A stretch of DNA of 64,000 bases from contig CP142730.1 of NCBI GenBank assembly GCA_036630325.1, forward strand, positions 744,001-808,000, in the 5' to 3' direction. Under the pieces are notes generated by a model, which made no database searches, was not told the DNA's origin, and saw nothing but the letters and a program-made list of their open reading frames with translations. The position numbers were made by a program, and so were the translations under genes. Positions 5,537 to 35,074 of this stretch are shown piece after piece (position 1 is the first letter of the stretch; each line of letters begins with the position of its first letter). Source of the DNA: Vairimorpha necatrix. Its lineage: Eukaryota.

Positions 5537-6560
5537 GGCTAAAGTAACCTTTAGCACACAATTTTCGATATAGGGTTTTTTTTGTTTTTTTTGCCCCTTT
5601 TTTTAAAAAATGGAAGAAAGAAAATGTGGAGGAAGAAACAAAAATAAAAATTAAAACAATAAATTTATTAATGTTTCAAACACAGAACTAGAAGAATTTC
5701 TTTGAATCATGTACCTAAATAAATAAAGCTTGGCACTACACGATGACCTATTTCTATTAGGTATAGCATTTTTGAGGGAACGCCAATTACCTTCGATGGT
5801 ATTGGTATGAACACCAGTATTGGGATCTCGAAAGTGCAACGAGTGGTTAACCATATGGTGTTCTTTAAATATGGTCCTCAAAGAATGATAAGCCTTCCAC
5901 ATATCACTATGTATAGTACTTTTTGTACTTACAAATTTTAATAAATGACCCGTAAGAGTTTCTTTATCTCTTTTTTTAATATATAACACTATTATTCTAC
6001 GTTCGATGGTACGTTCTATCATACCGAAACACCAAAATCCCTTCACTAATTTTCCTCTGTTATGTTTATTCTTTCCTATTTTAATTTCATCAATTTCTAC
6101 AACAACATCTTCCCCGCCTATCTTACTAAAAGAAGATAAATATTTGTCATAAATGTTTATTTCTTTTAATTTTGTTAATATAAAGGACACAGACTTTTTG
6201 GTACAACCTAACATTTGACAAATATATTTACGTGGATAACCAAGAATCCACAGATTAAGTATTTGTAATATTGTTATGTGATTAAGTTGAGAACATTCAA
6301 AGAAAGAATCTTTCCATATAGAAAATGACTTTTTGCAATCCTTCCAAGTACATATAAATAAGCCTTTCCCTTTACGTTGTACTCGAATCCTAGATGTACA
6401 ATTATCACAAACAGTAGGTTGTCTTTTTATTATTAATTCATTATACATCGCTTCCAGTTCATCTCTTGTCCAAATTCTTTCTTCCATTTTTTAAAAAAAG
6501 GGGCAAAAAAAACAAAAAAAACCCTATATCGAAAATTGTGTGCTAAAGGTTACTTTAGCC
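5537..6560 (-). mobile_element. Intact Merlin (IS1595/ISXO2-like) DNA transposon, family A, 1024 bp
   Basis: Perfect 86-bp TIRs (5537-5622 and 6475-6560) starting GGCTAAAG. 8-bp TSD AAAATTTT at 5529-5536 and 6561-6568. Encloses a transposase ORF. Confidence 0.95.
5651..6487 (-). CDS. Merlin/ISXO2-like DDE transposase
   Basis: 278 aa. N-terminal CxxC...CxxxxC, VEIDE, HSDMWKAY, VNHS, HTNTIEGNW. Confidence 0.92.
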   Translation of the reverse strand: MEERIWTRDELEAMYNELIIKRQPTVCDNCTSRIRVQRKGKGLFICTWKDCKKSFSIWKDSFFECSQLNHITILQILNLWILGYPRKYICQMLGCTKKSVSFILTKLKEINIYDKYLSSFSKIGGEDVVVEIDEIKIGKNKHNRGKLVKGFWCFGMIERTIERRIIVLYIKKRDKETLTGHLLKFVSTKSTIHSDMWKAYHSLRTIFKEHHMVNHSLHFRDPNTGVHTNTIEGNWRSLKNAIPNRNRSSCSAKLYLFRYMIQRNSSSSVFETLINLLF

Positions 6561-7771
6561 AAAATTTTTTCTGACACTTTAAGAAAATCCATTTTTATAC
6601 ATCTTAATGTATTTTTTGACATTATATTTTCTTTGCTAACAAACAATAACAATTAATTATAAGAATAACAGAATTGCTCTATTAAAACGTGTGTAATATG
6701 CGTAAAACAGAAATAAATATATCCCATGAACCATTATACATTGTTAATTCTAAAAAAAAATATATTTTAAGCTAAACAAAAATTGGTCAGATATTTTTAA
6801 ATATATGTATGAGAAAAAAAATATGTTCATATATTTTATACAGTTCAAAATCATATCATTTTATCAAAAATTTCAAAGCAATAATTTGACCCATGACGCC
6901 ATTTAAATAAAAAATGTCATTAAAAAGGTTTATCATATTATTAATGTTTTGCTTATAACAATAATTTATTTAGTGTCATATTTAATATACTTTTGAAAAT
7001 TTACTATTTGATCTCGCTTTTTGAATATAATTGACAATTTATTTTATTGGTTTTAAGTTGTCTAGTTAAATTTATAATGTAAAAACTAGACAAAAACATG
7101 GGTATTGTGTATTTGATTTATCTTATTTTCTCTCATCAGACTTTACTTTCGCCAGTGTTTAATTACATTAAAAAAATTATGCAAAAGATTAAAGTAAGCA
7201 TAAGCAACATGCTATAGAATTACACATCGATCAATTTATACGAAAAAGATTTCATTATTTATCAATCAAAATTGTACAAATAAGAAATATGATTTTTAAA
7301 ACAACGGCCTTAACTATACTTTTTATAATTTATTGAAAATAATATAGATTTTGAGATTTAGAATTGATAAACTCATACTTTATACAGATATTCTTGATTA
7401 CAAAATATATTTCATATTTATCGTACACGATCTTATTAACCATTTTAATTGGGGGAAATTAAAAAAGTAGATATGTACCTACGATAATGGTTTTCATTAT
7501 TGGTCATATTTGGTTTATTCATTTATTGGTTTGTGTAGTTTATAATATGATTACGTTTAAAACAAATAAAGCAATCATGAATGTATGATATTTAAATTAT
7601 GATATAAGATTTAAAACTTGTTCTGTTTAGCTTATGAAGATAAGAAAATAATGTAAATAATAATTCGTAAACCAGTCTAAATTAATGTTTTTCCACATTA
7701 AAATAACTATAAATTTAAATTTTTATATTATAATTACAATTAAATTTATATCATACATATACAAAGGACAT

Positions 7772-10072
7772 TTATTGTAATTTTGTTGTTTGATTATTTA
7801 TCACCTCAATCAGATCATCATGTAACCTCGTCCCTGACTCTTGAGATAATAATTCTTCATCACATAATATTTCTAATATATTCTGATACTTGCTCTTACA
7901 CTTTTCTTTTGATATAATATTATTCTCCAATTCCCCTTCAAACATTTTTACTAGAATAGATGGAAACTCTCTTTTACAACATATTTTAACATTTTCTCCG
8001 ATATTGTTTTTTAGATCTCGGTTAAAATTTTCTATCATTTCATTTGTATACTCTTTTATAATGTTTTCATCCCAAGAATTCAAAATTTTTGATAACTCTC
8101 CTATCACATTGTCATGTTCAAAAATGTTTTCTATGGCCTTTGCTCCTTCTTCTATTAATTCATTTTCAAATTTAATTCTTACTTCTAATTCATATAAATT
8201 TTCTACTTTTCTATTTAATCCATCAGTTAATATTTCGTTTAACACTTCACCGAAGATTATTTTGTGCATTTTTTTCAATATACTCATAATTTCTTTTTTG
8301 CATATTGTTTTTTCGACCTCTTTTTCTATGATAGTTTTAATTTGATTTATGTATTTTCTATATTCTTTTTTAGCATCCTCTTGTAAATTTTTGGATAATT
8401 TTTCCCTTATTGTATCGTTATTTATATCTACTTCGTTTTTATTAATTCTATAAGTATTAAGAACTTCGTCCTTTTTAGTATAAAATCGACTAAATCCCAT
8501 TTCATATGTATTTATTTCTAATCCAGTTATTAATGTTGACAGTTCAAGACTACAAATTAATACATGTTTTTTGAAAAAATTTACATCTTTTAAGTGATAC
8601 TCTACAGATTCTTTGTATATTTTGTATAAATCAATATTTTCATTACTATTTGATAGATGTGATTCATTTATGGCGAATTGTCTTTTGTGTTTTTCTTTGG
8701 TTTCAATTAATTTTCCAATTTTTTTAAGCGTATCAAATATTGTATCATTACTACATTCATTTTCGTTCATGTATTTCTCTGCCTCTAAGAATATACAAAT
8801 TTTCATAATATGAGTATTCGATGAATATTCACGACATGATAAATTTTTCCAAAATATATTTATAAGTTGCATTTTTCTTCTTTCAGTGAGGTTGTCGCGG
8901 CCTATCATTTTTTTCATTTCACTTTCGTCTATTAATGACTGGTCAAACATTAAATGAGCGAATATCATACTTAAAGGAGTTCCTGGTTTATTTAAAAGTC
9001 TATTTATGATAAACTCTACTTTGTTTTCATTTTTCATTAGTCTAAAAAACAATTCAACATATTTATCATTAAATTCTAGGAAATAAATCTTTCTAAAAAC
9101 TCTTTTAAACTCAATAATTTTTTTTTCTTCAATTATATTTTCATTGTTAGTCAAATTTGGGTTTTTTTCAGAAAAATAATCATAATGTCTGATATCATGT
9201 GTAAATCTGATTCCATCATTTAATATCGACATTTCAAAATTTCTAGCATACAATTTAATATTATTTAATTCACAAATTGTAAAATGGGATTGGTCGTATA
9301 AACTTATTCCATCCAAATAAACAAGCTTATATAAATCGTAGAAATGCTCACCAATCAGCTTATCGATTTCATTAACGTGTGATGACTCAAATTTGACCAT
9401 TGAGAAAAGATTTGGTTCATCAAGTAATTTATAATCTACTTCAAAACAATAATAAATATTATCTACTTGTATACTAAGGATTAAATAACATTTAAATTTC
9501 GTCTCAACGATTTCAAGTGGTATTTTGTATGTAATCGGATTTTCTCTATAATATTTTAAGTCGATTCCAGTTTGTTTTATCATTCTGTTCCACAGACAAC
9601 TTTGGTTTGTAATACTATCATATAAAATTTCAGGACGTACACTCATTTCTCTTCTTTTAATATTCAATTCTTTAAAATGCTTTATGATTTTTTTATAAAT
9701 TAGATCCACTTCATAATACTTTGAGTCATATATCAAGATTATAGAGTCGGCTAATTTGTTTTTGTATTCAAATAACAATTTTTTTTCAAATTCGTCAACA
9801 ATATTTACAATAGATTTGTTATAGCAGCTAATTATTATGTTTTCCAATTCCTCACTTTGATCCCAAGGGAAAGCTTCTAACCTTAATCTCGCATTTATTT
9901 CATTTTTACTCATATGAAAATTTAATGTTACCTTTAAGTATCTATTTTCAATATTAATGGTAGTATAATTCCTTGCAATAATTTCATCCGTTAATACGGC
10001 GTTAAGCTGATCATAAAAACGTGTCCATGTTTGTATAAATACAATATAGGAAATTATTTTAATTATATGCAT
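7772..10072 (-). CDS. Lineage-specific ~770-aa protein with putative signal peptide (family X, copy 1)
   Basis: 766 aa with CCCCC before the ATG and a hydrophobic N-terminus. Aligns by eye along its length with 30277-32589 (shared LLFEYK, QTGIDLKY, GIRFTHD, REYSSNT, SLYDQS/NLYDQS). Confidence 0.85.
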   Translation of the reverse strand: MHIIKIISYIVFIQTWTRFYDQLNAVLTDEIIARNYTTINIENRYLKVTLNFHMSKNEINARLRLEAFPWDQSEELENIIISCYNKSIVNIVDEFEKKLLFEYKNKLADSIILIYDSKYYEVDLIYKKIIKHFKELNIKRREMSVRPEILYDSITNQSCLWNRMIKQTGIDLKYYRENPITYKIPLEIVETKFKCYLILSIQVDNIYYCFEVDYKLLDEPNLFSMVKFESSHVNEIDKLIGEHFYDLYKLVYLDGISLYDQSHFTICELNNIKLYARNFEMSILNDGIRFTHDIRHYDYFSEKNPNLTNNENIIEEKKIIEFKRVFRKIYFLEFNDKYVELFFRLMKNENKVEFIINRLLNKPGTPLSMIFAHLMFDQSLIDESEMKKMIGRDNLTERRKMQLINIFWKNLSCREYSSNTHIMKICIFLEAEKYMNENECSNDTIFDTLKKIGKLIETKEKHKRQFAINESHLSNSNENIDLYKIYKESVEYHLKDVNFFKKHVLICSLELSTLITGLEINTYEMGFSRFYTKKDEVLNTYRINKNEVDINNDTIREKLSKNLQEDAKKEYRKYINQIKTIIEKEVEKTICKKEIMSILKKMHKIIFGEVLNEILTDGLNRKVENLYELEVRIKFENELIEEGAKAIENIFEHDNVIGELSKILNSWDENIIKEYTNEMIENFNRDLKNNIGENVKICCKREFPSILVKMFEGELENNIISKEKCKSKYQNILEILCDEELLSQESGTRLHDDLIEVINNQTTKLQ

Positions 10073-12579
10073 AGGGGGAAAACTTTTTTTATTAAATATT
10101 TGAATTTTGGATCAATTATGACTCAAAATTTTTAAATTTTTGAAAAAAAATGAATCAGAGCTATTGGTAATGATAGGATTTAAACTCTTGTTTTTATATA
10201 ACATAATTTGAATAATCAAACTTTAGTATCACTTCTTGAAAAAAATCAATGACGTGTATAAACATTAGAATATAATTTAAAACCATAATGATAATTACAA
10301 GTAAAAAGAAAAAACTAATTCCTTTGAAACCCTTTGGCATCCTTTTTATGCATTAATTAACTGCTGAAAAATTAAAATCTTTTACTATAACCTATTATTT
10401 ATAATAGCTACTTACAATTTAATGTTTGTTTACAAACATTAGCTTCTTTTTTTGTTTTTAGTGTTTATATTACATATAGTTTATTATGAAATTTTTATCG
10501 TTATTTTAGATTGGTTTGTTTGATGTAAATCTTGTGTCAATGAAGCAATTATATGAACACAACTTTTGAGTCTTATTATCAATAAAAAATTGAACTAATA
10601 CAATGTCTTGCTCTCTACCATAAAACTAAAAAATCTGACTCAAAAAAAACGACATATTAAAATTTTTAAGCTAAATTATTTTTTAGAACCCCTTAAGTTA
10701 TATTTTCATAAGTAATGTCCTTATGATTTAGATTAAAAATAGGAGTTGTAATGATATTTTAATTTAAATTTTTTATTATTTTGATTTTCTCACTTATATA
10801 TATATATATATATATCGTAAATTAATATATGGGCACGTAATAATATGTTCCCAGATATTTAATGTCAAAAAATCAAATGTATTATATGTCTTTTGGTCGA
10901 TTAAATAATTATTTGGCCACTTTTGGCATTTAAAAGGAATGTACCAGAAACTCTTACAGACTTGTTGTTATATTGTGGGATTCTTGGCATGAAAACAAAA
11001 AACTCAGTTATATTTTTTATTCAATTTCAGTTCTATATTTTAATGGCAGTTTATTAAACATAATTTTTCGAAATATTTATAAAAACTTGATTTATTCCTT
11101 TAAGATATATTTTTTTATTAAAATGTAATTAGTATCATCTTGATATAAAATATAGGTTTAATCCAATAAATCATATACACTTTTCACTAAACCTATTATA
11201 ACAATATAAATTTTCTTTTAACAAAATGCATATTTTCACATTATACATCTTAATTTCTAAATTTATCAATCCTGTGGTATGTAGTTTCTACAGTTTACAT
11301 AAAAAAAGTAGTTGTTGATCTTATACAAAATATGATGACCTAAAATCGTATTGCGTATTCATAACTCTATTTTTGCTTTGATTATTTGTGTTGAAGTGCT
11401 ATAACATTCCATTTAGAAACACATCAGTATTTTTTTCCTTTTCATTGAAAATTATTTAATGTTTTACAATACAAACAAAATCAATATTTACTTATTTTAA
11501 AAATTTTTTATACTCTTAAAGTATTATAATAATATGCATAAAATCAGAAAAGAAATAAAGAGATGATTATAAAGCCAAAACTAAACATTTATTAATTAAT
11601 TTTATTTTATTTTTAAATCGTGGGTTCTAACACCAAACTCTCAAATATAAATTTTTAATTTTTTGTAGCTTATAAAAAACAACGATAACATGTGTAGATG
11701 TACACTTATAGAATAAAATGATTGGAATAATATGACATATATTGATAAATAAAAAAAGGCAAATTTTATGATTACTTAAAAACTTATCAAACGATTTCAA
11801 ATTGTATTTAAAAAAAGCCCAGCTCGGCTAATTCATAACAAAAACATAAGAAACAATTTTAATTATTGCTTCATATTTGTGAAAGCATCTTAGCTATGTT
11901 CAGTGCCAAAAAGAATGACTAATAAAAAAACTAATGACACTATAAAACATGAGAAGTTTGTTTTTGAATCAAATCCCTTAGAAACATCATCAATATTATT
12001 ATTATTAAATTTTTATTTCATACTGGAAAAAAAATAATACAAAAGTTTTTTTACAAACTAATTTCGGTTTTATAAACAAAGGTATAATAGTTAAAGTCGA
12101 ACTTTGTAGTAAATGTTACATTGCTAAATACATCTCATGCAGATTTTATTAGATGTAGAAATTTATTTTTCTTCTCATAAGCTATACTATATTATTCGAA
12201 CATTATATCAAGATAATACATTCTTTTCTATAATGTCGATATTTAAAATTAAAGAACCATTCACTGTCCAAGTTTTTCCTTTTTTTCGAGATACGTTTTG
12301 GTCATAAAATACATAACTGCTGAAAAAATTTATGTATTATCGGTTGATCTTACTAATGGCAATTTTTTTTGTTCGATTTGTGCTTTGGTGCCTGATTTAT
12401 GATAAATTTTCGCTATATTGTAATAGTCATCGATGTTCAACGTTTTTTCCAATTAAGTCTGATCTTTAATCCAATAAATTTGCTTCGTATGACATATAAG
12501 CTATAAGTTAGAAAATTTATGCGCAACTTAGTATTTTTACATGGGCACAACAGCAAACGGATTTTTAAATCTTTTGAAT

Positions 12580-13305
12580 GCTTCATTCTTAGTGTCCAAA
12601 AGAATTCTGTACATACTAATGAAACCAAATTCGTTTTTAGATAAAAACTAAACAGTTTTCTGATACTAAGATGTGCTGAATCTTCTCATATAAAAAAATT
12701 GTTTACAAGAATCACTAAGTTGATTTTTGAAAATTGCATGTGTCCATTCTGTATGGTAATTTACGTATGTCAAAAAGTGATTAAAAGTCCATAACTAACG
12801 TATTTTCATCCTCCTCAACTGTACATAATGTTATATATGGTATTTAAATGCATTTGTTGGTGTTCAAGGGGTAGATCTTAGGATAATTATTGGGATGGAT
12901 AAAAAAGAAGCTATAGTTCTAGTAGACATGTTACTGCCAGATTCTGATGCACGTTTTCTTTAAATTGTGGATAAACATGCTTAACGATGTCTATAAAATT
13001 AAAGAGGTGATGTGCTGTCATAAGATTTAGATTATTATTAGGGGCTTCTGTATTTGTAAATGTTGACTTCCTCAAGTAATTGAATCGTTTGATAGGATTT
13101 AAATGCTGTAAAAATTTATTGACGAGAGATATCTCAAGAAACTAACTGTTCTCCTCGTCCAAAGTCCAATAGATAAGGCAGCTAGCTAAACGACCCATTT
13201 TTCGAAGGACCTTGAGAACGCTATAGACTTTAGAATCAATGGTTGTTATTAAAACCCTTTGAAGTCAGATATGTATAAAAGTTTTCTTCTTACTTGCAAG
13301 AAAAA
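12580..13305 (+). mobile_element. Ancient, AT-decayed copy of the tRNA-headed SINE
   Basis: Collinear matches to the young copies: AATCACTAAGTTGATT...TGTGTCCA, GTTGGTGTTCAAGG, AGATTCTG, GGTGATGTG, TGTTCTCCT..CCAAAGTCCAAT.GATA.GGC and terminal CTTACTTGCAAGAAAAA. The 5' boundary is approximate. Confidence 0.7.
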
Positions 13306-13742
13306 TACATAAATCTTGTATCTATAATGCTCTACATAGATTTGCATCTATTATATATATATATATATATATACATAGAAATGCATTGGAAAAGTAAGGT
13401 ATATAATAAAATATTGCAATTTACATAGATCTGTACGTTATATATTTACAGCAACAGAATAATACTGTTACCTCTTTATATTCTATAATATATAATCTTG
13501 TAGAATTATAGTATAAATTATTATTATTGGACCAATAGCATTATAGGTCAATTGCTTTTTAATACTGTTCAATATGGTATTAGAATAAAGTGTTAACACT
13601 TTTTGTCAACTAAAAAAATCATTAAAAGATTGTTTTTTGTTTTATTACATAAAAATTAACATAATGATAAGATAAGAAAAAAAAACTAGCCACAAATTTT
13701 AGTTATCAATTAGAGTCTAATTAATACGTCAAGTTTATGCTA

Positions 13743-14609: not shown

Positions 14610-15880
14610 TTAGGGCAAAATTTATAATTAAAACTTAAACAAATTTATTTAATCATCACTTTTGTATTTTGATTTTGCTTATAGTAAACTTTTAATTTTA
14701 AATTTTGAAACAAACACTAATTACAGAAAAAATCTGACACAGTTAAATACAAATAAAAAAAATAATTTCACCTTGGGATTATAAAAACATGAAAAAAGAT
14801 ACAATATGAATGCATCAGTAAATTAGATATAAAATCAATGATCTAATAATAAAAGCGATTTTGGTAACCAATTAATCTTATTTACCTTAAAATATTTTTT
14901 TATTTTATGTTTACGACATAAAACAATAAAATGAGGGAGTGATTGGTTTGAAAAGATTTATTTGACATATTGAATATCAAAAAACATAAAATAACGTATT
15001 TTAGGCGCAAATTTTCTTTGAAAATAATACAATTTGTGCTTAGACACACAAAAATATTACATATATTCTTAACACCTAAATTAATCGATGTATATGAATA
15101 ATTCTTGCACTAAAGGTATGTTTTACAAAGGATTTTTATATTTTTTTGAAAAACATACATAACACATTTATAGGGCGGGTTTTACGTGTGATGCGTTTTT
15201 AAGCTAGTATTTATATTTATGATTCAAAATGATTATCTCTATCATTTTGAACCTAATTTGTACATTGAGGTTTAAATTTAAATAATGATTTTATTTTCTA
15301 AGCATTAGATTTGGTTAAAAAATACACTCGCAGTATAAAATATAGAATTTACGCTCAACAACTTTAGTTATTGTGGCAATATTTATGCTCGGAGCTTCTT
15401 TATTAGAACGTCTTTGAATACTCTCACTAAGAGTTATAGTATCTTCTTCTTTTATAGCTTGTCATTAAAAATATCCTAACAAATATGAAGGAAAATACTT
15501 ATAAATCTACACCGCAATCATAAACAAAACGTATACTAAAAATTAAGTGAGAAATTAAGCTCCTTGATTCTTTTTTTTCATTGTTCAACCGAATGCATTA
15601 CTTAAAAGCTGTTTTTTGTCGGGGTTCTGTTAGATAAAGAATTTTAAAAGCAAATAAATTCATTTTGTATTAATTTTTTCTCGATATAGTAAGCCGATCT
15701 AGTTAATAAAAATTTTAACTATAAACAGTTTTTATTATTTCTCGAACCCAATATATAGAGCTTATTGTGTTTTTTTAGAAAAATTATCCCCGTTATGCTT
15801 TTATTTAACACTATCAGTTCCCAAAATTATGGGCTGTAACAGTACATTCTATAAAAAAAATTAAACCATATTTTATACAT

Positions 15881-16672
15881 TTTTTTTTCTTGCAAGTAAG
15901 AGGTATGGAGAAACCTTACATAGGGACCAAAGGAATTTGGGTGTGATCCTCGTCCAACTGGTACTGTGAGATTCTCACTCAGTAAAACTTCCTTTATACA
16001 ACTTGTCGGTACAGCAAGCTCCGCCGTATCCATTGGACTTTGGCTCCAGGAGAACACTTTTCATTTATACCTCAAATCGCGTCCAGAGTGACCTCACAGC
16101 GGATATACTTAACGGGCATGGTTATCTATAACTCGAGGAGAGACATCATCGTACTGACTCAAAGGTCCCTACAATCATCTGTATTGCACACACGGCTCCT
16201 TTCACGACCACATCACCAGCCCGGCGTTTTTTTTTGGGCTGCGTTGTCTTTTAGTCTCCCACTAGTTTCGACCACCGTGTTACAGAATCTAGTAGGATAG
16301 GGCCCACGAGACCTTCTATTGCCCTACTTCGTCTAGTCTCTTAATTAGCTCTAGGATCCCACTCTAGAGTGCACCAGCCATGGGCTCCAACTAGGCCGTA
16401 CCCATTAGAGACTTTTATGTTCATTAAGTCACCACAAGGGTGATACTGTTTTTTGGCCCCGAGGTGCGTTTCTACACTATATGCTTATCCCCTTGTGGCT
16501 GGACACACACAGAATTCATCGAATCAACTTAATGATTATCGTGGACATTTTCATCATCTGAGTTGTTCCAACTGCATCATAGAAAGTAGAAACAATTTTG
16601 CAGCCTCTGGGAATCGAACCCAGCCATTGCTCAATGGAAGCATTGCATTCTACCACTGCGCTAAGGGCACCT
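15881..16672 (-). mobile_element. tRNA-derived SINE, young copy 1 (792 bp)
   Basis: 5' tRNA-like head with A box TAGCGCAGTGG and B box GGTTCGATTCC. 3' A-tail. 15-bp TSD CCATATTTTATACAT at 15866-15880 and 16673-16687. About 90% identical by eye to 24832-25622. Confidence 0.9.
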
Positions 16673-16968
16673 CCATATTTTATACATAGTAATAGGGGAA
16701 ATTATTTTCTGTGTATTTTCATATAATCAATTTCAGACATTCCATCACACTTGTAAGCTAAATAATTTAAGTCCTTCTATATGACCACAACATGGATCTT
16801 TTAATTAGACTCAGAATATAATCTATTCTAATGATAAACAAAACATTTTCCAAACCTAGGACAATTTAGAGCTTTTTACATCCAGGATTAAAAATTTTTA
16901 ATACCGAATAATTAAATTCTTATGGTTTAAACATATGTTCATGTTACTTCTTTTTCCTTTTTTGTTCC

Positions 16969-18467: not shown

Positions 18468-20746
18468 TTATTTTAATAATTGTACAGGAACATCTCTAAT
18501 TGTCAAAAAAACTTCAATAAATATTTTATTTAATATTGTTAAAATTTTGTAAGTCTTGCTTTGGAGATTTCTACATAGTTGTATAATTCTCAGATTCATT
18601 TTCAAACACCTTTTGTAAAACCTTTTGCAATTTATATAAACGACATATTTTTACATTTTCAAATATATTGATTTTTAGCTCTCGGCAAAAATCTAATTTT
18701 AATTTATTTTTATATTCAGTTATAGTATTTCTGTCGAAAGTATTAACAAATATTTCTAACTCTTTAATTATATTGTTATCTTTAAATATATAATCAATTT
18801 CTTGCATTCCCTTTTCTCTTATTTCCCTTTCAAATTTAGTGCTTATTTCCTCATCATATAAATTTTCAACGTCCTTATTATATGCACAGTTTATGATTTT
18901 TCTTGTCGCATGATAGAATATTGGTTCATTAATATCTTTTAATATATCTAAAACACGTTTTTTAAACTCTTTTTCGTATGCATCGATTACTTTTTTATTA
19001 TCTGGATCATCATGAATTCTTTCACTTTCTCCAAAAAGATCAAATTTTCTTTTTTGTTATCTTCTTGATTATTTTCGGATATTTTCTTACTTATTATATC
19101 GTTATTAATATCTAATTCATTTTCATTAATTTTAAAAAAAGACAAAGCTTCTTGTTTTTTCTTGTAAATGTTTCTGTATCTAATTTCATATGAATTTTCA
19201 TCTAAATCTGCGATAAGATTTGATAATTGGACAATAAGTTTGTAGATTTTATTTCTATGAATTTTTATTTCATTTAAGTGACATTTCAAAAACTCACCAT
19301 ATATTTTTGTTAAATCAACCCTCTTTTTTATTGCAGAGTTGCGCACGTTTCTTTTTAAATCTTCTTTTGAATTGATAAGTTTCCCTATTTTTTTAAAGGT
19401 ATCAAACATTGGATCATTACTAACATTATTGCTATTTATCTAACTTTCAGCCTCAAAGAACAGGCAGATTTTTATAATGAACGGAGTCGAAAAATCTCAA
19501 CCTGGAGTAAATCTTTTCCATAACATCTCTATATAATGTTTCGTTAATGTTTCATTAGATTTGTGTTGTCCTATGATATTACCTAATTCACTATCTTTTA
19601 TACAATTTTTTTCTAATAAAAGAAGTGCAAACATTATTTTCAACGCCGAACCATTAGCATTAAAATTCTGAATGCAAGAAATTTCACTTTCTTTCTGTTT
19701 TTTATTAATCTAAAAAGCAATTCAACATAATTAACACGATTTTCATCATGTAATATTAAAGAAGTTTTATAATAGATTTCTTGAAACTCATCTAATGTTT
19801 GTTGCTCAATAGTATTTTCATTGCCAGTTATATTTAAATCTTTTTCTTAATGAATATTTATAATTTTTTGATCATGCATAAAATGTATTCCTTATTTACT
19901 ATCGAGATCTCAAAATTTCTGTTTGTAAATTAAATTTTATGAAATTCACACACTATACACTGTAAATTTTCTTTTAATTTATTCCATCGAAAAAGCAGAA
20001 TTTATACAATTCATAAAAATCTTTACAAATCGCATCATCGGGTTATTCGACATATGATGATTCAAATTTAATAATAGAAAATTTTTTTTTTTCATCAAGA
20101 TCTCTAAAATCTATTTTAAATAAAATATAAATCTTGTTAAACTTAATACTTTAATATAAATAGCATCCTTGATTTATTTCAGCAATAAAATTTGGTATTT
20201 TATAACTATTCAGTTTATTTTCATGATGAGACAAATATTTTCTCATTCGATTAATCATTTTGTTCCACGGGCCATTTTGATCTATAATAACTTCGTAGAA
20301 AATATCAGGACGGCTGCTCATTTCTTTTCTCTTGACATTCTCTTTCATTATATGTGTAGTAATTTTATTGTAAATATTAATTTCAGCGTAAAGTTTTAAG
20401 CTATATATTAAAACAATGTAGTCGACTTCATTCTTATAGTATTCAATTTTTACTTTTTCTTAGAACTCTAAAATAATATTTTCAATAGATTTATCATCAA
20501 ATCTAACTATTATATTTTTTAAATCTATATTGTTTAAAATTATAAAACTTTCGATTTTTAACTCTGCAAATAATTTCTCTTTTATTTAAATCTAAATTAA
20601 AAAATATTTTTAAATATCGTTTAGGTATTGATTACTGCATAATCTCTTTTAATTATTTTCCTGATCATTACTGTATTAAATCTATCATAGATATGATTCC
20701 ATGACTGGGCAAATATCATAAATAAAAACAAATTAATAGTGTTCAT
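18468..20746 (-). pseudogene. Pseudogene of family X (copy 2)
   Basis: Starts MNTINLFLFMIFAQSWNHIYDRFN after a CCC motif. Fragments (ENVKRKEMSSRPDI, MFDTFKKIGKLI, ENVKICR) match copies 1 and 3 in order but are broken by stops and frameshifts. Confidence 0.85.
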
Positions 20747-21406: not shown

Positions 21407-22525
21407 GGATCTAGTTTGTTATACGCCCGAATAAGGCGTATAACAAACTAGGTTAAAAAAATTTTACCATAATGAGAACGGTTGTGTCGCAGTTTGAAAT
21501 TTACGTACAAATCCGTAGGATGCCACCTTTACAAATGATTTCTGTTCTGCGAGAACAAAACCTTCTTCTGACCAGTATGTCCTGTTCTAAGTGTTCATCT
21601 GGCATGGTTGAGCGATCGAAGAAAGGCCCAGGCCTTATATGCTGGACTCGCGGCAATAAAGTGTGCAGACTCTACAGGACCACAAAGAGCATTAGAACTG
21701 GATCCTTTTTTGAGGATTTAAATTGCCATTGTTTGAAATCTTCGCTATGATTATGTTTTGGAGCGAAGGAAGACAGATTAAAGAGATTATTTTAGACCAT
21801 GGATTTAGAAGAAACAGCATCGTGGCGGTTATAAACAAGCTGAGGACTATCCTTAAAGTATACTTTGAGGCTGATCCTATGAGATTGGGAGGTCCAGGTA
21901 TTATTTGCCAGATCGACGAAAGCCAGTTCGTCCACAAGATCAAACATCATCATACAGAGCACCATCCAGTGATGTGTGGGTTTGGGGGATCGCAGACACA
22001 TCTCACTCTCCTGTGAAGTGCTATATGGAGATTGTCCCAAATCGATCAGCTGGTGTTTTACTTCCGATCATTGCTAGGATATGTAGACCTGGCACAATCA
22101 TTCAATCAGATGGTTGGGGATCATATGCGAATATCGAAAGAGAGCTCGGGTTCCGTCATCTGGTCTTGAACCACAAGACAAATTTCGTTGATCCGATAAC
22201 TGGAGCCCATACCCAGAACATTGAGTCATTCTGGAATAAGATAAAGCATGTGATTAAGAAAATGTATGGTGTTCAAAAAGCGCAACTTCCCGGTCTTATA
22301 GCTGAACTGATGTTCAGAGATGAGTTTAAGGAGACTGCGTTCATCAGAATGCTAGCTTTACTAGTCATAAGCTAAAAATAAAATAATTATAAAACAAGCC
22401 TGTCTTTTTACAATGCTGCTTTTTTTATCATGCTATAAAAGTTCTTTTCTCTTAAAAGCTCTAATTTTTTATTTCAGGCGTATAAAAAACTAGGTTTGGC
22501 TCCGGGCGCGTAGCAAACTAGATCC
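21407..22525 (+). mobile_element. Merlin (IS1595-like) transposon, family B
   Basis: ~23-bp TIRs GGATCTAGTTTG(T/C)TA..CGCCCG with 3 mismatches. Flanks CAAAAAAT and CAAAAAT form a TSD with a 1-nt indel. Confidence 0.9.
21472..22375 (+). pseudogene. Merlin transposase split by two frameshifts
   Basis: Three consecutive ORFs give CSKC...SIRTGSFF, then LGGPGIICQIDESQF, then VWVWGI...VPNRS...QSDGWGSY...HTQNIESFW. Shifts lie near 21715 and 21952. Confidence 0.85.
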
Positions 22526-24451: not shown

Positions 24452-24831
24452 CATTAATGTATATTTATACAACGTTTTAATTATAGCTGTTAGAAATATC
24501 TAAATAAGAGGTATTACTTTACAAAATATACCTTTAAATCTTAAACCACAACATTCCTGCGACCTGATAATGTACATTCTTTTCCCTTAGTAAGATAGAT
24601 CGTTTCTTTATGATTTTAAATAGATGAGTGACATGTCGTTCATTAACTTTATCGTATACATTAATTGGATATGTGTCGTTAAATAGTATATTTACGACCT
24701 CACCCGAATCTAAGGTTTGACAGTCCTTTAAATTTATGTATATGATCTTCTATTAAGACAAGATCGTGTAGTTATGGTTTTTGATAGTTTACTTTTTAAC
24801 ATTTCCTTATACTTTATGTTTTATTTTTAAA

Positions 24832-25622
24832 GGGTGCCCTTAGCACAGTGGTAGAATGCAATGCTTCCATAGAGCAATGGCTGGGTTCGATTCCCAGGGG
24901 CACCAAAATTGTTTCTACTTTCTATGATGCAGTTGGAACAACTCAGATGATGAAAATGTCCACGATAATCTTTAAGTTGATTCAATGAAACTTGTGTGTG
25001 TCCAGCCACAAGGGGATTAGCATCTAGTGTAGAAACGCACCTCAAAGCCAAAAAGCAGTATCGCCCTTTGGTGACTTAATGATACATAAAAGTAACTAAT
25101 GGGTACGGCCTAGTTGGAGCCCAAGGCTGAAGCACTCTAGAGTGGGATCCTAGAGCTAACTAAGAGACTAGACGAAGTAGGGCAATAGAAGGTCTCGTGA
25201 CCCTATCCAACAAGATTCTGTAACACGGTGGTCGAAACTAGTGGGAGACTAAAAGACAACGCAGCCCAATAAAACCGCCGGGCTGGGAATGTTGTCGTGT
25301 AAGGAGCCGTGTGTGCAATACGGAGGATTGTAGGGACCTTTGAGTCAGTACGATGATGTCTCTCCTCGGTTATAGATAACCATGCCCGTAAGTATATCCG
25401 CTGTGAGGTCACTCTGGACGCGATTTGAAGTATAAATGGAAAGTGTTCTCCTGAAGCCAAAGTCCAATGGATACGGCGGATCTTGCTGCGCCGGCAAGTT
25501 GTATGGAGGGAGTTTAAGTGAGTAAGAATCTCACAGTACCAGTTGGATGAGGATCACACCCAAATTCCTCTGGTCCCTATGTAAGGCTTCTCCCTACCTC
25601 TTACTTGCAAGGAAAAAAAAAA
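24832..25622 (+). mobile_element. tRNA-derived SINE, young copy 2 (791 bp)
   Basis: Head GGTGCCC...GGGCACCA with an intact acceptor stem, A and B boxes and a perfect T-arm CTGGG-TTCGATT-CCCAG. A10 tail. 12-bp TSD TTTATTTTTAAA at 24820-24831 and 25623-25634. Confidence 0.92.
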
Positions 25623-25667
25623 TTTATTTTTAAAATGTTTATTCTTTAATAAATATTAAGTTTTTTT

Positions 25668-26760
25668 TTATTTAATGCCTTTTTTAGTGTGAAATTTGTT
25701 GATACAAACATATATGTAACTATCGAATACATTACCAACTCGTTTTGCAATCTTATTGTATTCTCTTTTTTGTTTGGCCTTTGCCGCCGTTCTACTAAAA
25801 CGTTCTATTATACCGTTTGAATAATGATGATATGCAGAAGTTACATGTAACAATCTTGTTTTTTACCAGTAAATTTATGATATGGTCACTGCAATTTTCT
25901 TTTGCTGTATCAGAAAGAAATGTCTTCACATAAAATTTTATTGTACTATTTGCACAGAACATGAATAAATTCAAACTTGTTTGTTCTAAAATACTTTTGC
26001 TGTAGCGTAATTGAAAATAAATTTATTGCAATAAATAAATGAATTTAATTAGGGTATGCTTATTGTAGTTTATATTTATAGTTTAACAAGGATGGGTTCC
26101 GCGTTGGCGTCTCCTGCTTGTAGGTGGCTTCTCGTCTCCATAGTTCTTTCCACATCGGCTTCGTCTCCTCTCCTTCGGTAGTCCAGAGAAATGCTTTCTA
26201 GCGTCTTCTTTAGCGTGATCATCTGGATGTACGCTTCTACCTTCTTAGAGATTTCAAGTCTTGTGGTATAAGATTTGTGAAACTTAGTCACTATACCGTC
26301 CCAAGAGATTACGTAGGGAATTATTTCTGTTTTAAAACCATATATTAGGCCCAGTTCGTTCGCAAGGACATCATATGTAATAAATATATATATATATATA
26401 TATGTTTTCTATTGGGGGGTATAAGAAGGGAAAAAATGTTCATTTAATACAATAAAAGTTTTCTTTTGAACTTTTAATGTCAAAAGCTTTAATATGTCTA
26501 TATCTTATTATTCTTACAAAGTCGGATTTTTTACACTTTAACATTCTCTAACAGTTTATTATGCTCATGATAATCCAATATTTCTGTCAGGTCCACTTTA
26601 ACATAAGCTTTAAAAGAACCTTTGGCTCCTCTATGAACCATTCTTCATAAGTTTAATTATGCCCTCAATGTTATCTCCCTATTAATATTGTTTATTCTAT
26701 AGATTGGTGTGATAAATTCGACGTGTGCCAATTCTGTTTGTTTCTTATTTTTAATTTTAA
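25668..26760 (-). mobile_element. Degenerate Ty3/gypsy-like integrase remnant, interrupted by a LINE fragment
   Basis: Minus-strand fragments MVHRGAK...REC (HHCC-like), FIAINYF..YATAKVF, FLSDTAKE and HVTSAYHHYSNGIIERFSRT (integrase core). Confidence 0.65.
26076..26376 (-). mobile_element. 5'-truncated RLE-type (R4/Dong-like) non-LTR retrotransposon fragment
   Basis: Open frame YDVLANELGLIYGFKTEIIPYVISWDGIVTKFHKSY...EAYIQMITLKKTLESIS resembles the C-terminal end of RLE-clade ORFs. GC-richer than its flanks. Confidence 0.75.
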
Positions 26761-27022: not shown

Positions 27023-28028
27023 AGCTAAAGTAGCCTCAGGTAACAAATTTGCATATGAGGTTCTTTGTTTTTTTGCCTTTTTGAAAATGGAGGAAAGAAT
27101 TATGACAAGAGGAAGAATCGAAACAGTAGATAATGGTTTAGCAGTAAAAAAAACAAACTCAATTGTGTACAGTCTGTAATTCTTGAATAATGTTCAATAG
27201 AAAACAAAAATTTTTTTTTGAAATGTACTTGTCAGGATTGTAAGAAGATAATATCTATAATATAGATACTTTTTTTTGTTAGTTCTAGGCATAATTATAT
27301 CATAATCTTGCGAGTATTCAATCTATGGATTCTTTTTTAATCTTGTAAGTATATTTGCCAAAATTTAGGTTGATCTAAGAATTCTATATTCTTGAAATTA
27401 AAAAAAATTTGGAGAAAAAACATTTTTGATAAATATTTATCTTTTCAGTACAATATAGGCGTATAAGATATTGTAGTAGAATTAGATGAAACTAAAATTC
27501 CAAAAAATAAGTATAACAAGGGGGAACTAGTGATACTATTTCAGTGTTTATGTATGATAGAACGTTATATCGAACGTAAAATAATACTTTTTTATATTGA
27601 AAAAAGATATTTAGATCACTTACGGCATTTTTTTAATATGTAAGCAAGCAAAGTATTATATATAGCGATATGTGGATGGATTACCATTCTTCGAATACTA
27701 TATTCAAAGCACACCACGTTGTTAACGTTAATTTCACTTTCAAGATCATCATGCTGGGGTTCATACCAATATCATAAAAGTTAATTAGTGTCCCCTCAAA
27801 AATTCTATACTTAATAGAAATAGGTCAGTAAATAATGGCAAACTTTTTTTATTCAGGTATATGCTCCAAATAACTTCCTCCACTTCACGATTTAACGCCC
27901 TATCAAATTATTTTATCTATTTATTATTTTTGTTCCTTCCTCAACATTTTCTTTCCTCGATTTTTTTTCTGAAAGGGGCAATCCCCTCCCCTATTCAGAA
28001 TTTTTTTCTACGAAGGCCGTTTGTATCG
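27023..28028 (+). mobile_element. Decayed copy of Merlin family A
   Basis: Begins AGCTAAAGTAGCCT...GCCTTTTTGAAAATGGAGGAAAGAAT (TIR plus MEERI). Collinear with 5537-6560 (VVELDETKI..NKYNKG, SDMW, GVHTN) but riddled with stops. Confidence 0.85.
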
Positions 28029-30276: not shown

Positions 30277-32589
30277 TTATTTAATTGATATTCCATTATT
30301 TTGATCTTCGTATATTTTTACTAAAACATCATGTAAATTAACTTCTACTTCCTCAAAAATATCAAATATTTCCTTTTCGCTCAATACCAACAATATTTGG
30401 TTAATATACTTTTCGTACATATGTTTTATATTCATTTCCGTCAAAAAAATATTTTCAAATGCTCCTACTAAAACGTGCAATAAATCTTGTTTACAACAAA
30501 TTCTCATTTTTTCTTTGATTTCAATTTTTATTTTTAAGCATAATTTTTCTATAATCTCTTTTTTATATTTTTTTAGAAAATTTTCATCCCAATAATTTAG
30601 CATTCCAGATAGTTCTTTCATTATTTTATCATGTCTGTATATATTTTCTATAGCTCTAATAACTCTTTCTTTCGATTCAGTAAAAAGTTCAATTTTTATT
30701 TCTTCATCATATAAATGTTCGACTTTTCTATTCAATGAATCAGTTATTACTCCATTTAACGCTTCACTAAATGTAAACATATGAATCTTATCTAATATTA
30801 TTCTTAATTTTTCTTTGGATTTCGTTTTTTCGATTTTGCTTTCTAAGATATCTTTTATTTCGTGTAAATATTTTTTATATTCTTTTTCGGCGTCCTCTTG
30901 TGAGTTTTTAGTCAACTTTTTTCTTATTGACTCAATGTTAATATCTACTTCATTTTTACTAAATCCAAAAATGCTAAGAACTGTGTCTTTTTGGGTGATG
31001 AATCGATTGAATTCCACTACATAGATATTCTTGTCTAATCCCGTGAATAATGCTGATAGCTCTAGGATACAAATCCAAATATGCTTTCTAAACTTTTTAA
31101 TGTCTTCAAAATGATGCTTTACAAAGATTTGATATATTTTTGCCAAATCTGTTATTTTCATATTATCACATAAATGAGATTTATTTGATGTGACCTCTCT
31201 TTCAAGATTTTCTTTAGTTTCAATATATTTTCCTATTTTTTTCAAAGTACCGAATATCGAATCATTATTAACATGATTTTCGTTTATGTATCTTTCAGCC
31301 TCCAAAAACAAACATATTTTCATAGTATAAGTATTCGATGAATATTCACGATATGATAAATTATTCAAAAATATTTCTATAAGTTGTATTTTTCTTTCCT
31401 CGCTAAGTTTGTCCTTGACTATGATTTTTTGTAACTCATTTTCATCTATTAATTCTTGATCTAACATAAGATGAGCAAATATTATATTTAAAGGTCTTCC
31501 ATGACTATTCAAAATTCTCTTTATGAGAAATTCTATTTTGTTTTCATTTTTTATTAATCGAAAAAACAATTCAATGTCGTTGTAATTATACCCTAAAAAG
31601 CAAACTTTTTGTATAATATCCTTAAATTCAATAAAAATTTTTTTCCCGATAATATTTTCATGTTTGGATATACTCGTTTTATGTTTTGAATAATAAAAAT
31701 AGGTTCCAAAATCATGTGTAAATCGAATTCCATTATTAATTACAGAGATATCAAAATTCATGGTAAAAAGTTCAATTCTTTTAATTCCAAAAGTTATAAA
31801 AGGCGATTGATCATATAAGTTTAATCCCTCTAAAAAGATAAACTTATACAAATCATGGAAATTTTTACTGATCATCCTATCAATATCAAGAGTATCTGAA
31901 GATTTAAATTCGAATATATCTAAAAATGTCTCTTCATTAAGTTCTTGCAAATTTATTTCGAATAAATAATACATATTTTTCATCTGAAAAGATAAATTTA
32001 AATGACATAAATCTTTTCTTTCAACTATCACAATCGGTATTGTATAATTTTTAGGATCTTCTCTAAAATACTTCAAGTCAATTCCTGTTTGGCATATTAC
32101 TCTGTCCCACATACAATAAAGATCTACGACAAAATCGTAGGTCAATTCAGGCCTGATGCTCATTTTTTTCCGCTCAACATTTTCTTCTCTTATATATTCG
32201 ATAATTTTTTTGTAAATTGGATCCATTTCACAATATTTTGGGCTATACATTAAAATCACAGAGTCTGCTAATTCTTTCTTGTATTCAAACAATAATTTTT
32301 CTTCAAATTCTTTAACAATATTTTCAATAGATTTGCCATTGCAAATAATAATTATATCTTCAAGATCTTTACTCCTATCCCATGGATAAGTTTCTATCTG
32401 TAATTTTGCATTTATTTCATTTGCGTTAAAAAAGAAGTTTAATTTAACTTTTAAATATTTTCTTTCATTATTAATGACGGAATAATCTCGTTTGTCTATT
32501 TTATTCAAAATTATACTATTTAATTTATCGTAAACTCGCGGCCAACATTGTATAAATAAAAAGAAGGTAATCACAATACTACTATTCAT
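30277..32589 (-). CDS. Lineage-specific ~770-aa protein with putative signal peptide (family X, copy 3)
   Basis: 770 aa, paralogous to 7772-10072. N-terminus MNSSIVITFFLFIQC. Confidence 0.85.
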   Translation of the reverse strand: MNSSIVITFFLFIQCWPRVYDKLNSIILNKIDKRDYSVINNERKYLKVKLNFFFNANEINAKLQIETYPWDRSKDLEDIIIICNGKSIENIVKEFEEKLLFEYKKELADSVILMYSPKYCEMDPIYKKIIEYIREENVERKKMSIRPELTYDFVVDLYCMWDRVICQTGIDLKYFREDPKNYTIPIVIVERKDLCHLNLSFQMKNMYYLFEINLQELNEETFLDIFEFKSSDTLDIDRMISKNFHDLYKFIFLEGLNLYDQSPFITFGIKRIELFTMNFDISVINNGIRFTHDFGTYFYYSKHKTSISKHENIIGKKIFIEFKDIIQKVCFLGYNYNDIELFFRLIKNENKIEFLIKRILNSHGRPLNIIFAHLMLDQELIDENELQKIIVKDKLSEERKIQLIEIFLNNLSYREYSSNTYTMKICLFLEAERYINENHVNNDSIFGTLKKIGKYIETKENLEREVTSNKSHLCDNMKITDLAKIYQIFVKHHFEDIKKFRKHIWICILELSALFTGLDKNIYVVEFNRFITQKDTVLSIFGFSKNEVDINIESIRKKLTKNSQEDAEKEYKKYLHEIKDILESKIEKTKSKEKLRIILDKIHMFTFSEALNGVITDSLNRKVEHLYDEEIKIELFTESKERVIRAIENIYRHDKIMKELSGMLNYWDENFLKKYKKEIIEKLCLKIKIEIKEKMRICCKQDLLHVLVGAFENIFLTEMNIKHMYEKYINQILLVLSEKEIFDIFEEVEVNLHDVLVKIYEDQNNGISIK

Positions 32590-35074
32590 TAAGGCTTATA
32601 AAATTTCACTATAAATAGCATTCGGATTTAATTTTCAGACTAAATGAAAAATTAAATAAATTTTGATGGTTGAATGTACTTTATGAACAATGAAGAATTA
32701 AGTTTTTAATATACGTTAAAAAACTTTGACACGTCTCAACGGTCAAATCTCAGCGTATCCAGACAATTACTCTAAAAATTGATAAACAAATTAAAAAGCA
32801 TCATTTATATATTTACCTTCAAAAATAAGATTTTACAAAAAATTCATTTAAATAATATATAGAAAACTTTTTTACCGTATTCAGTGCGTTTCAGAAAAAT
32901 TTTATACATTTTTTGCCTGAATTTTCCTACATTATTTTGGTAAGTGATAATTTTTGTAATTGTTTGTATGAATTCTTATATTCTATTTGTTTTTTGTTGT
33001 AATAACTTAGATATAATCAAAAAAAATTATAAATTTTTTTTTCAAATATTCCTTTTGATAGATGACTTAAAATGATTAATTTATGTTAAAAAATTATTAT
33101 AACGCATAATTGCTTTACTTTTTATTTTAGATCTGGTTTTAACTAAACGGTTCGATAGAATGTAAAATAAATATACTTAAATCTTTGTACTAATATATGA
33201 GTGAAATATAAACTTTTAGATATAAAAAATAAAATATTTATGAAAAGTTCGTTAATTAAATAAATGACATTTTTGACATGAATGTTCAATTTGTAACAAA
33301 TAAACGTGATAGAAATTTAGACATTTTTTCCACAATAATGAAATATACAGTTATAAAATTAATAAAATTTTCACTTACAAATTATTGCGCTCATGGATAG
33401 CATGTCACATAATTGTTAAATATGAAGTAAATTAATGCTTATAGAAAGTAAGAGAACTTTATAGTGAAGATATATAAACATAGAACATAAATATTAAGAA
33501 ACTATGTTGTAATAATAATTTTTAAGCTTGCTAAATAAAATTTAAAAAAACCTTTGCAAAAATATTTAATATTCATATGAAATGTATATAATATAATCAA
33601 TGGCCTAATATTGAATTTTTTAGATTATCACGCGCCTTTACCTATAAATATATGAGATAGGTTTGTTTATTTTGCTTGCGAACATATAGACAGTCGAAAT
33701 ATGCAAGAATTCGTTTATTTTCGATAACACACGCAGAAAAAAAAACTTTTTACTAAAACGTTGACATATTGTTTTATGTCAATAAGTTCTACATTTTTTA
33801 AGTTAAAATTATGTTATCAAATGTTGTTCACTATAAATTATTAATGTGAATTTTATATCATAAAAAAAATTATTAAATAAGTTTAATTAAACTAATTGCA
33901 GTTTGCTTTTTACAATATTGTAAATAAAGATAGAAATTTTAATCGTTTTCGGTTCTTATAATTGACGCGAATAAATTCTTGAAATAGAATTGACACTACT
34001 ATAAAAACAGGTTAAACTTCCAATATAAATAACAAGATGTATTTTTTTATATAGCCAACAAAGAAATTTTATAATAGGTTAAGGTGTCTCATTAATGCAA
34101 TCCTCAGCAAAAATTATCGATAAAACACAAAAATGCTATATCGCAGCAAATGCACGTGAGCTAATTCATGTAAGTAAAACAAAGATGTAATTATCAGTGC
34201 TTATATGGAAGACATATCCACTAAATATTGTGTAAAATATAGAGAATTGCTTACTGTTATTGGGCGAATATAAGCGTATAACCAATCGGAGATCACAATA
34301 AGAGCCTTGAAAGCATCTCTCTGAACTACGGTCAAGATTTGAAATATTAATAGAGGCACTGAAAGGGGTGTTTGACCAAGCTTATCGTTCCTCAATTATG
34401 TTTTAAACAATCCTGAAAAAAACGAAAATAATAGACTTCTAATTATTTCGTGTTCGAGATATTGTAATTTAATGATATGTGCAATTTATTAAAAATCCGC
34501 TAATCAAAAATTCTTTTTTTTTGATAATTTTCTTTTTACCATTCAAGAATAACTGTTAATTTTATAAAATTATACTATATTAATACAACTACTTCTCTTT
34601 TTTAATCATAAATATATGTAACCTCTTCTTTAAAATAAAAAATATATATATTAAAATTTACAAATAAAATTATGGTTTTTGACTATGAAAAAAACTTAGG
34701 GTTGGTTAATTTGAAATAATTTGTCAAGAAAGAAATATTTATTGGTTATAAATTGCTGTACTTAGAATTAAAAACATAAATAACCATAATTTTCTTTTTA
34801 ATTTGAGGGGTAACACTATTAAGATGTAAATACTTAAAACCATTTTTTAATTTTTTTTACTGTACCAGAAAAATAGATAGTTTAACTTCATATTTAATAT
34901 TATTTTACTAAAATACATCTCAAAAATTAATTGTTTATTTAATTTATATTACGTTTAATTAAATAACGGATATTTAATAACTATACCAAGTATTTTCATC
35001 TGTTCTGTTAGCTCGAATGGCTTAAAAATAAAATATATAATTTTTATTTTTTATTACTATTTTTATTTACCGTT

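Follow-up and report, generated by a model that had tools for sequence, protein, structure and literature searches.

The SINEs derived from tRNA genes (SINE2) combine a tRNA head carrying A and B boxes with a body of unknown origin, an A-tail and target-site duplications (TSDs); they are non-coding and occur in many copies (PMC3531059). The element described here, from the microsporidian Vairimorpha necatrix, is alike in all of these respects. It differs from the SINEs collected in SINEBase in its length, about 782 nt without the tail against 75-662 nt over 175 families, and also in its microsporidian host, its R2-like structured tail and a source sequence that stayed nearly fixed over 31% of neutral decay (PMC3531059). 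Some fungal SINE-like elements are similar in length and copy number, e.g. mgsr1 (800 bp), Egr1 (700 bp), EGH24 (900 bp) and MgSINE (472 bp); this likeness is one of descriptions, not of sequences, and the passage of PMC5063351 that describes them mentions no R2-like module. SINEs with LINE-derived tails are found in Lepidoptera, at 252-333 bp far shorter than this one (PMC3272025, PMC8010984).

The tail itself recalls three other described systems. With the R2 3′UTR (Rfam RF00524) it shares a closing stem with a bulged A, a UUUUAG word, helix P2 with its GUA.G/AAUC loop, helix P3, the words AAG.UUU and UACCUC, and a 3′ end placed before a poly(A). However, it scores below the cut-off of that family, lacks model positions 1-78 and a 32-nt hairpin, has an upper P1 stem 3 bp longer, follows no R2 ORF and does not lie in 28S rDNA. 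An ENE is a loop rich in U that binds poly(A) and requires a G-C pair beside its U-strands; ENEs are linked to LTR retrotransposons, and in Evade the ENE lies between the ORF and the 3′ LTR (PMC12501189, PMC13541005). Like the ENEs of KSHV PAN, Arabidopsis Evade and plant and fungal transposons, the SINE tail has two U-rich strands by a G-C pair and a stem with a bulge, shortly before the A-tail of a transposon RNA. Unlike them, its U4 and U3 strands are closed by a multi-way junction, the RNA is a putative Pol III transcript and the triple helix is only predicted (PMC12501189, PMC13541005). Finally, the Drosophila R2 SIDEs are also non-autonomous and end in R2-type 3′ sequence, but they carry an R2 ribozyme at their start and are inserted in 28S rDNA, whereas the SINE is tRNA-headed and dispersed (PMC3414825); of the two marks of an R2 SIDE, a 5′ HDV-like ribozyme and an rDNA target, it has neither.

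The literature that we searched, mostly outside subscription journals and without the 2016 ENE survey of plant and fungal transposons, describes no microsporidian SINE and no such module outside R2. The term 'SINE' is absent from PMC7313128, PMC12558613 and PMC12449221; PMC11585130 reports no SINE in the genome studied there, the passages of PMC13702014 use the word only for a RepeatMasker category, and PMC10946416 mentions only MITEs for Nosema.

The window that we analysed is a stretch of 64,000 nucleotides of contig CP142730.1. It holds two well-preserved copies of the element and an old relic, with the following parts.

24820 to 24831, forward strand: left TSD of copy 1, 12 bp, by sequence inspection
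24833 to 24905, forward strand: tRNA-derived head of copy 1, with A and B boxes and an intact acceptor stem, nearest to tRNA-Ala(UGC)
24911 to 25036, forward strand: predicted three-way-junction domain of copy 1 (consensus 79-204), where local fold stability is highest (z -3.0, boundaries set post hoc)
25037 to 25497, forward strand: middle body of copy 1, non-coding, apparently constrained in the source lineage
25498 to 25605, forward strand: 3′ four-helix module of copy 1, related by comparison to the R2 3′UTR core (RF00524); 24.7 bits, E 0.0009 with a model built from two metagenome contigs
25613 to 25622, forward strand: A-tail of copy 1, 10 nt
25623 to 25634, forward strand: right TSD of copy 1, 12 bp
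16673 to 16687, reverse strand: upstream TSD of copy 2, 15 bp
16599 to 16671, reverse strand: tRNA-derived head of copy 2, acceptor stem damaged
15889 to 16598, reverse strand: body of copy 2, including a decayed 3′ module (about 15896-16002), 94.5% identical to the consensus
15866 to 15888, reverse strand: A-tail (15881-15888) and downstream TSD (15866-15880) of copy 2
12570 to 13309 (approximate boundaries), forward strand: third, very old relic of the family, about 51% identity
26031 to 26408, reverse strand: 5′-truncated end of an RLE-type LINE beside copy 1, given as context; a partnership with the SINE is a possibility

An initial annotation of the window had placed one copy at 24832-25622 on the forward strand, where 24832 is a single extra G before the head, and the other at 15881-16672 on the reverse strand. 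Both lie exactly there, with a mean column identity of 93%, flanks included. The A and B boxes, the A-tails and the TSDs of 12 bp (24820-24831 / 25623-25634) and 15 bp (16687-16673 / 15880-15866) were likewise as annotated, and so was the GC-rich body (0.46-0.47, where most 1-kb bins have about 0.2-0.3). The annotation had interchanged the two copies in part: it is the one at 24832 that has an intact acceptor stem, no TTTT and the word TACGGAG, and the one at 15881-16672 that has a broken stem, one TTTT and TACAGA. The 3′ module of copy 1 bears private substitutions in both of its U-runs.

The window also hosts an IS1595/Merlin-type transposon (5525-6572), a 279-aa frame (PF12762) flanked by perfect inverted repeats of 98 bp, with related pieces at 21457-22375 and about 27270-27970. 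Three paralogues of a secreted-looking protein family of ~775 aa lie at 7772-10111, 18571-20459 and 30277-32595; one is broken. A methyltransferase of the window counts proteins of Encephalitozoon (55-60%) and Nosema (64%, over 60% of its length) among its nearest named relatives, which marks the host as a microsporidian.

Across the genome (15.0 Mb, 12 contigs) about 140 copies are recognisable. Three patterns, allowing up to 3 mismatches, gave 140, 139 and 122 matches, and reversed-pattern controls gave 0. A TSD is present in 29 of 31 distinct top copies, and a stricter search for exact TSDs found one in 46 of 78, with lengths of 10-19 bp (mode 14, mostly 10-16 bp); copies with a TSD often carry 1-4 extra letters at the 5′ end. 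Among pieces of at least 84% identity 95 of 111 are full length, and all full copies seen end in A-tails. The longest stop-free frame in the consensus, over all six, is just 86 aa, i.e. there is no coding capacity. The family is thus a SINE, with a tRNA-related head that has A and B boxes, a non-coding body and scattered copies that have TSDs of their own and end in a simple tail. This bears out the annotation's reading of a long tRNA-headed SINE inserted by independent retrotransposition events.

The 183 distinct pieces that we compared, which are the fetched loci, a part of the family biased towards pattern matches, range from 62 to 99.7% identity to the young consensus. Of the 18 copies in subfamily A2 we examined 17, and 14 of these differ from the A2 consensus by no more than 0.6%; the median A-tail is 18 nt in A2 against 10 in A1. 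These near-identical copies and longer tails indicate that the family is active, or was so very recently. The full-length young copies of both A1 (30/33) and A2 (17/17) contain a T4 in their interior, which is almost invariably the GTTTTAG of consensus 683-689, so that freedom from TTTT, which had been put forward as a Pol III signature, is not a family trait. The best host match to the head is tRNA-Ala(UGC), with a score of 73.5 against a median of 50.5 over 43 host tRNA predictions, and the three next-best matches of the A1 head are also Ala. The 'Met' call by ARAGORN reflects a drifted anticodon loop. The loop has drifted between subfamilies, which renders the annotation's question of an ambiguous anticodon moot. 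At its cut-off Rfam found only tRNA in the window.

The fetched loci also record a good deal of rearrangement. At L090 (1085-1870), L110 (1022-2631) and L248 a young 5′ part is fused to an old 3′ part of a type that we call 'B', heads are duplicated in tandem, and SINE copies have been inserted into the B box of other SINE copies. At a further locus (L003, 1490-2300) the depth-weighted letters of run X3 are A2-type at several diagnostic sites (32,965/34,217 at 1935; 26,807/28,249 at 2172). In run X1 the A2 letters are in the minority (32/432 and 10/233), near the genomic share of A2, 18 in ~140. The A2 excess in X3 is a lead only, since expression cannot be read from contig depth and none of the runs that contain the element, X3 included, is catalogued as RNA.

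The part of the element that stands out is its end. Comparison reveals a conserved four-helix module in the last ~105 nt, in the order P1, U4-6, A, P2, P3, P4, U3-5, P1′: a closing stem P1 with a bulged A, a U4 strand, three helices round a junction and a U3 strand. In an Rfam scan RF00524 matched the last 106 nt of an A2 copy with 21.5 bits (E 0.044), and a shorter scan gave 16.7 bits, with 56 of 83 aligned letters identical, by hand count, in three colinear blocks; the alignment has four two-sided changes in two helices. With both scores under the gathering cut-off of 38 bits, and in a tRNA-headed, dispersed element instead of the 3′UTR of an R2 ORF in 28S rDNA, the tail is not a member of RF00524, although the core helices are kept with compensatory changes. 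The match was not reported for copy 1 of the window, nor in larger scans, and a genome search with RF00524, in which 49 of 652 candidates were scored, gave a single unrelated match (E 7.5).

With the shared motifs cast as a gapped pattern, we found two contigs in a metagenome collection (L308 and L309) and none among viral contigs or prokaryote genomes. The pattern fixed about 26 letters common to the SINE and the Rfam consensus; P3 was left free on both strands, P2 on its 3′ strand, and P1 and P4 on their 5′ strands. Since L308 and L309 are 98% identical over the module, they count as one independent element. L308 scores 46.4 bits with RF00524, above the cut-off of 38, a value that is high partly by construction of the pattern. 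Upstream of its module lies an ORF that has a weak zinc knuckle, and all seven relatives of this ORF (7/7) carry PF14223, the Copia-type gag domain. Over the 13 pairs of P2-P4 the SINE and L308 show 5 two-sided changes, 8 identical pairs and 0 broken ones; both keep the bulged A in P1, which is three pairs longer in the SINE.

A topology descriptor, composed after the metagenome contigs had been seen, matches the consensus, A2, the middle-age consensus and both contigs. It misses the oldest-class consensus and the two decayed window copies, and matched 2 other, unrelated places in 128 kb of window sequence; among 300 shuffles, be it of the SINE or the metagenome module, 0 pass. A model trained on just L308 and L309 gave 7 matches in 245,948 bases (34 sources), all of them SINE tails, including that of copy 1. 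No LINE or LTR locus was matched in these bases, nor was the decayed module of copy 2. With filters off, the next score was 9.5 bits, against 24.7-28.1 for the SINE tails. These comparisons relate the SINE module, at the level of sequence and predicted pairing, to the core of the fly R2 3′UTR and to the module behind the Copia-type gag ORF.

Two further observations belong here. The full-score RF00524 match behind a Copia-type gag ORF comes from a metagenome (L308, 316-419; L309, 24-119), and in these short contigs no R2 sequence was seen. A looser module pattern gave 7 viral matches, several inside or antisense to ORFs; the helices are absent from these and we take them as chance.

The position of the module suggests a mechanism. 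U4 and U3 lie beside the pair G683-C761, and the A-tail begins 11 nt after P1. Pol III would read through the internal U4 and yield an RNA of ~800 nt. The U4 and U3 strands would then clamp the element's own A-tail as U.A-U triples, in the manner of an ENE. This clamp would stabilise the RNA and/or present its 3′ end to a LINE reverse transcriptase, which would insert the RNA by target-primed reverse transcription (TPRT). Insertion by an RNA route, with TSDs, and conservation of the 3′ fold are the observed parts of this scheme. On the modelled part, an ENE-like poly(A) clamp is a serious possibility, as is a purely protein-recognition signal; some other function of the tail is unlikely. The module has the U-rich strands on both sides beside a G-C pair and the downstream A-tract of an ENE. 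It lacks the simple upper stem that closes the U-rich loop; a junction of three helices takes its place, so we do not class it as an ENE. With 4 and 3 letters its U-strands are also short.

We hold a broader version more tentatively. The 'R2 3′UTR' core may be a portable 3′-end module that binds poly(A), a junction-type ENE, common to fly R2 LINEs, Copia-type gag elements and the SINE. The U4, which resembles a Pol III stop, would be kept for the sake of this module, and the frozen 700-nt body may be a chain of functional RNA modules.

Alternatively, the tail may be a stringent LINE-recognition signal, taken from the 3′UTR of an R2-clade or other RLE LINE, perhaps via an insect host, and the SINE would be mobilised by an unseen LINE with the same tail. 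SINE tails often derive from LINE 3′ ends (PMC5786205), protein binding and TPRT of R2 depend on its 3′ sequences (PMC3414825), and the RF00524 match is on the right strand and ends 11 nt before the A-tail. Against this alternative, the tail count (122) is not above those of the body (140 and 139). The 19 tail matches outside the body lists consist of 17 SINE copies cut by the edge of a fetched piece, one short 5′-truncated copy with a TSD and one piece of 38 nt, with 0 LINE ends. Moreover, the copies are dispersed with TSDs of 10-16 bp, not gathered at one rDNA site, and the presence of the same module behind a gag-type ORF argues for a general RNA function. This alternative is doubtful in our view, with one point in its favour from the search for partner LINEs: 150 of 835 reverse transcriptase candidates were scored, so another LINE may exist.

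That search covered three RLE families and one APE family, and the SINE tail is absent from all four. An RLE-type LINE has an intact ORF of 1,199 aa with CCHC and PD..E motifs; its family copies are 99.5-100% alike, and 14 of 22 have TSDs of 10-14 bp. An APE-type LINE has an ORF of 1,242 aa and occurs in nested arrays. Both types end T-rich, not in A-tails. The annotation had suggested that RLE-LINEs mobilise the SINE, and this stands as a possibility: TSD lengths overlap (10-15 bp for RLE) and an intact young copy exists. TSD length is all that matches, however, as the 3′ ends, whose comparison the annotation had proposed, share nothing. An RLE-LINE and a LINE not found here are each a reasonable candidate for the partner, short of being probable, and an APE-LINE is a weak one. 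A profile search with PF14529 gave nothing, and no relatives of the RLE reverse transcriptase were found in viral contigs.

The LINEs are of some interest in themselves. At least three RLE-type families (L043, 1120-4752; window 26031-26408) have T-rich insertion sites, TSDs of 10-15 bp and T-rich tails without poly(A), with one intact young copy. The APE-type LINE (L063, 1140-5270; L064-L082) also has an upstream ORF, nested head-to-tail arrays, an AATAAA followed by a T-rich tail and a GC-richer 3′UTR, and its arrays carry old 'B' relics of the SINE. Downstream of one LINE end (L047, about 4880-4960) lies a GC-richer stretch with a candidate CUAAUGA...GAAAC arrangement that recalls a hammerhead core.

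The history of the family points to constraint on its source. The oldest class (33 pieces, near-duplicates removed) is 31% diverged in the body by AT-biased decay, with symmetric C>T and G>A and a GC content down to 0.37. Nevertheless, the consensus of this class is 91.5% identical to the young one. Lineage-level changes affect 37 of ~710 body sites, 2 of them in consensus 73-172, and 13 of 72 head sites, i.e. the head changes faster than the body. Old copies are 48-63% alike mutually but share 64-72% with the young consensus; a source that barely changed would give such a star pattern. The source lineage appears to have evolved at about a sixth of the neutral rate over the whole body, a figure that may understate lineage change somewhat as the old pieces were aligned to the young consensus. 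Selection among source copies, for expression, stability and capture by reverse transcriptase, would keep the body nearly fixed while inserted copies decay.

A frozen body could also mean that the source is a host-beneficial ncRNA gene, a tRNA promoter with a functional 700-nt RNA, of which the copies are processed pseudogenes. BC1 and the ID elements are a case of an ncRNA gene with such copies. The slow body, kept at a GC of 0.47 against AT-biased mutation, and the faster head (13/72 against 37/~710) would suit this explanation. Against it are several coexisting, recombining subfamilies instead of one master, the A-tails on all full copies seen and the failure of the body to match any Rfam family. 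The captured host ncRNA that the annotation had considered did not turn up either: the RNase P/MRP core is absent, and a telomerase template is limited to one 7-mer, a match at chance level to the TAGG/TTAGG telomeres. We regard a host gene as distinctly unlikely, and selection on the SINE source itself as the preferred reading. The contig ends (L143-L146) carry telomeric arrays that are an irregular mix of TAGG and TTAGG.

A plainer account would be that of an ordinary long SINE with no special structure, whose likeness to R2 is due to chance. The annotation had pointed to many nested complements, yet perfect ones are no commoner than in 40 shuffles at 5-7 bp (191 vs 178±11; 66 vs 62±9; 18 vs 17±5), and 8-mers number 8 vs 5±3. 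Of the eight helices that it listed, three as written (GACAAC/GTTGTC, ATCCGCTGT/ACGGCGGAT and GGAGGGAGTTT/AAGGCTTCTCC) occur in only 1 of 80 young copies; the conserved 3′ module does include ACCAG/CTGGT and the GGGAG/CTCCC core. Folding is no more stable than in shuffled sequence for the window copies (z 0.01 and 0.08, from 20 shuffles each) and reaches z -2.0 and -1.9 for two near-consensus copies (20 each), and none of 24 sliding 90-nt windows falls below z -2.3. The consensus 79-204 folds as a three-way junction with z -3.0, its boundaries having been set after folding, and has no Rfam match. The test for covariation among genome copies that the annotation had called for gave a best p of 0.001 over 1,589 candidate helices, and none survives multiple testing. 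Lineage changes leave predicted sense-strand pairs intact slightly more often than matched neutral changes do, but not significantly so (P 0.10, or 0.21 in the shift test), and as a control the antisense strand does better (P 0.0007, or 0.009 in the shift test).

Two candidates for compensatory change, pairs 349/371 and 420/515, were not significant, and the latter is also biased by the search pattern. We had also considered 'family B' (65-70% identity) as a covarying sister; its substitution spectrum is that of neutral decay, and its shared helices are not above 12 column shuffles. Two of its copies share both flanks and hence stem from one old insertion, passively duplicated.

The weak whole-element fold (z about -2), the lack of covariation among copies, the RF00524 score below cut-off and the fungal SINE-like elements of 700-900 bp on record (PMC5063351) thus fit an ordinary SINE. 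The four helices, common to three unrelated contexts with two-sided changes where the search pattern left letters free, and a module model that matches SINE tails only, do not, and we find this account very unlikely. As for the annotation's large structured RNA, cross-element covariation upholds it for the last ~105 nt and the fold of consensus 79-204 does so weakly; the rest of the body gives it no support.

That the body harbours a self-cleaving ribozyme, as the annotation had also proposed, or the remnant of a group I/II intron is extremely improbable. In its favour are one GAGCCGTGTG word, similar to how group II domain 5 begins, and a possible H-type pseudoknot at consensus ~335-380; against it, the SINE copies have no Rfam ribozyme or intron match at E≤10, the CUGANGA core is absent from both strands, a loose HDV-like descriptor found only 2 overlapping antisense matches, covariation in the pseudoknot is not significant and full-length copies dominate, which internal self-cleavage would not favour. 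Motifs of telomerase, RNase P/MRP, group I/II introns, box C/D RNAs and hammerheads gave nothing beyond chance. The body had 0 matches in phage and plasmid collections, and its patterns found none in metagenomes and 2 contigs without further likeness in the viral collection.

In summary, a long-lived, still active SINE, derived from tRNA-Ala and equipped with a conserved 3′ module, is the probable explanation of this family. It is an active SINE that exceeds every SINEBase family in length, from a parasite group without a described SINE in the literature searched. Its frozen body raises the question of what fixes 700 non-coding bases against strong AT-biased mutation. If the poly(A) clamp is true, it would give a function to a long-studied fold of retrotransposon 3′UTRs and define a junction-closed type of ENE. 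It would also mean that RNA modules move between the LINE, LTR and SINE classes and across kingdoms.
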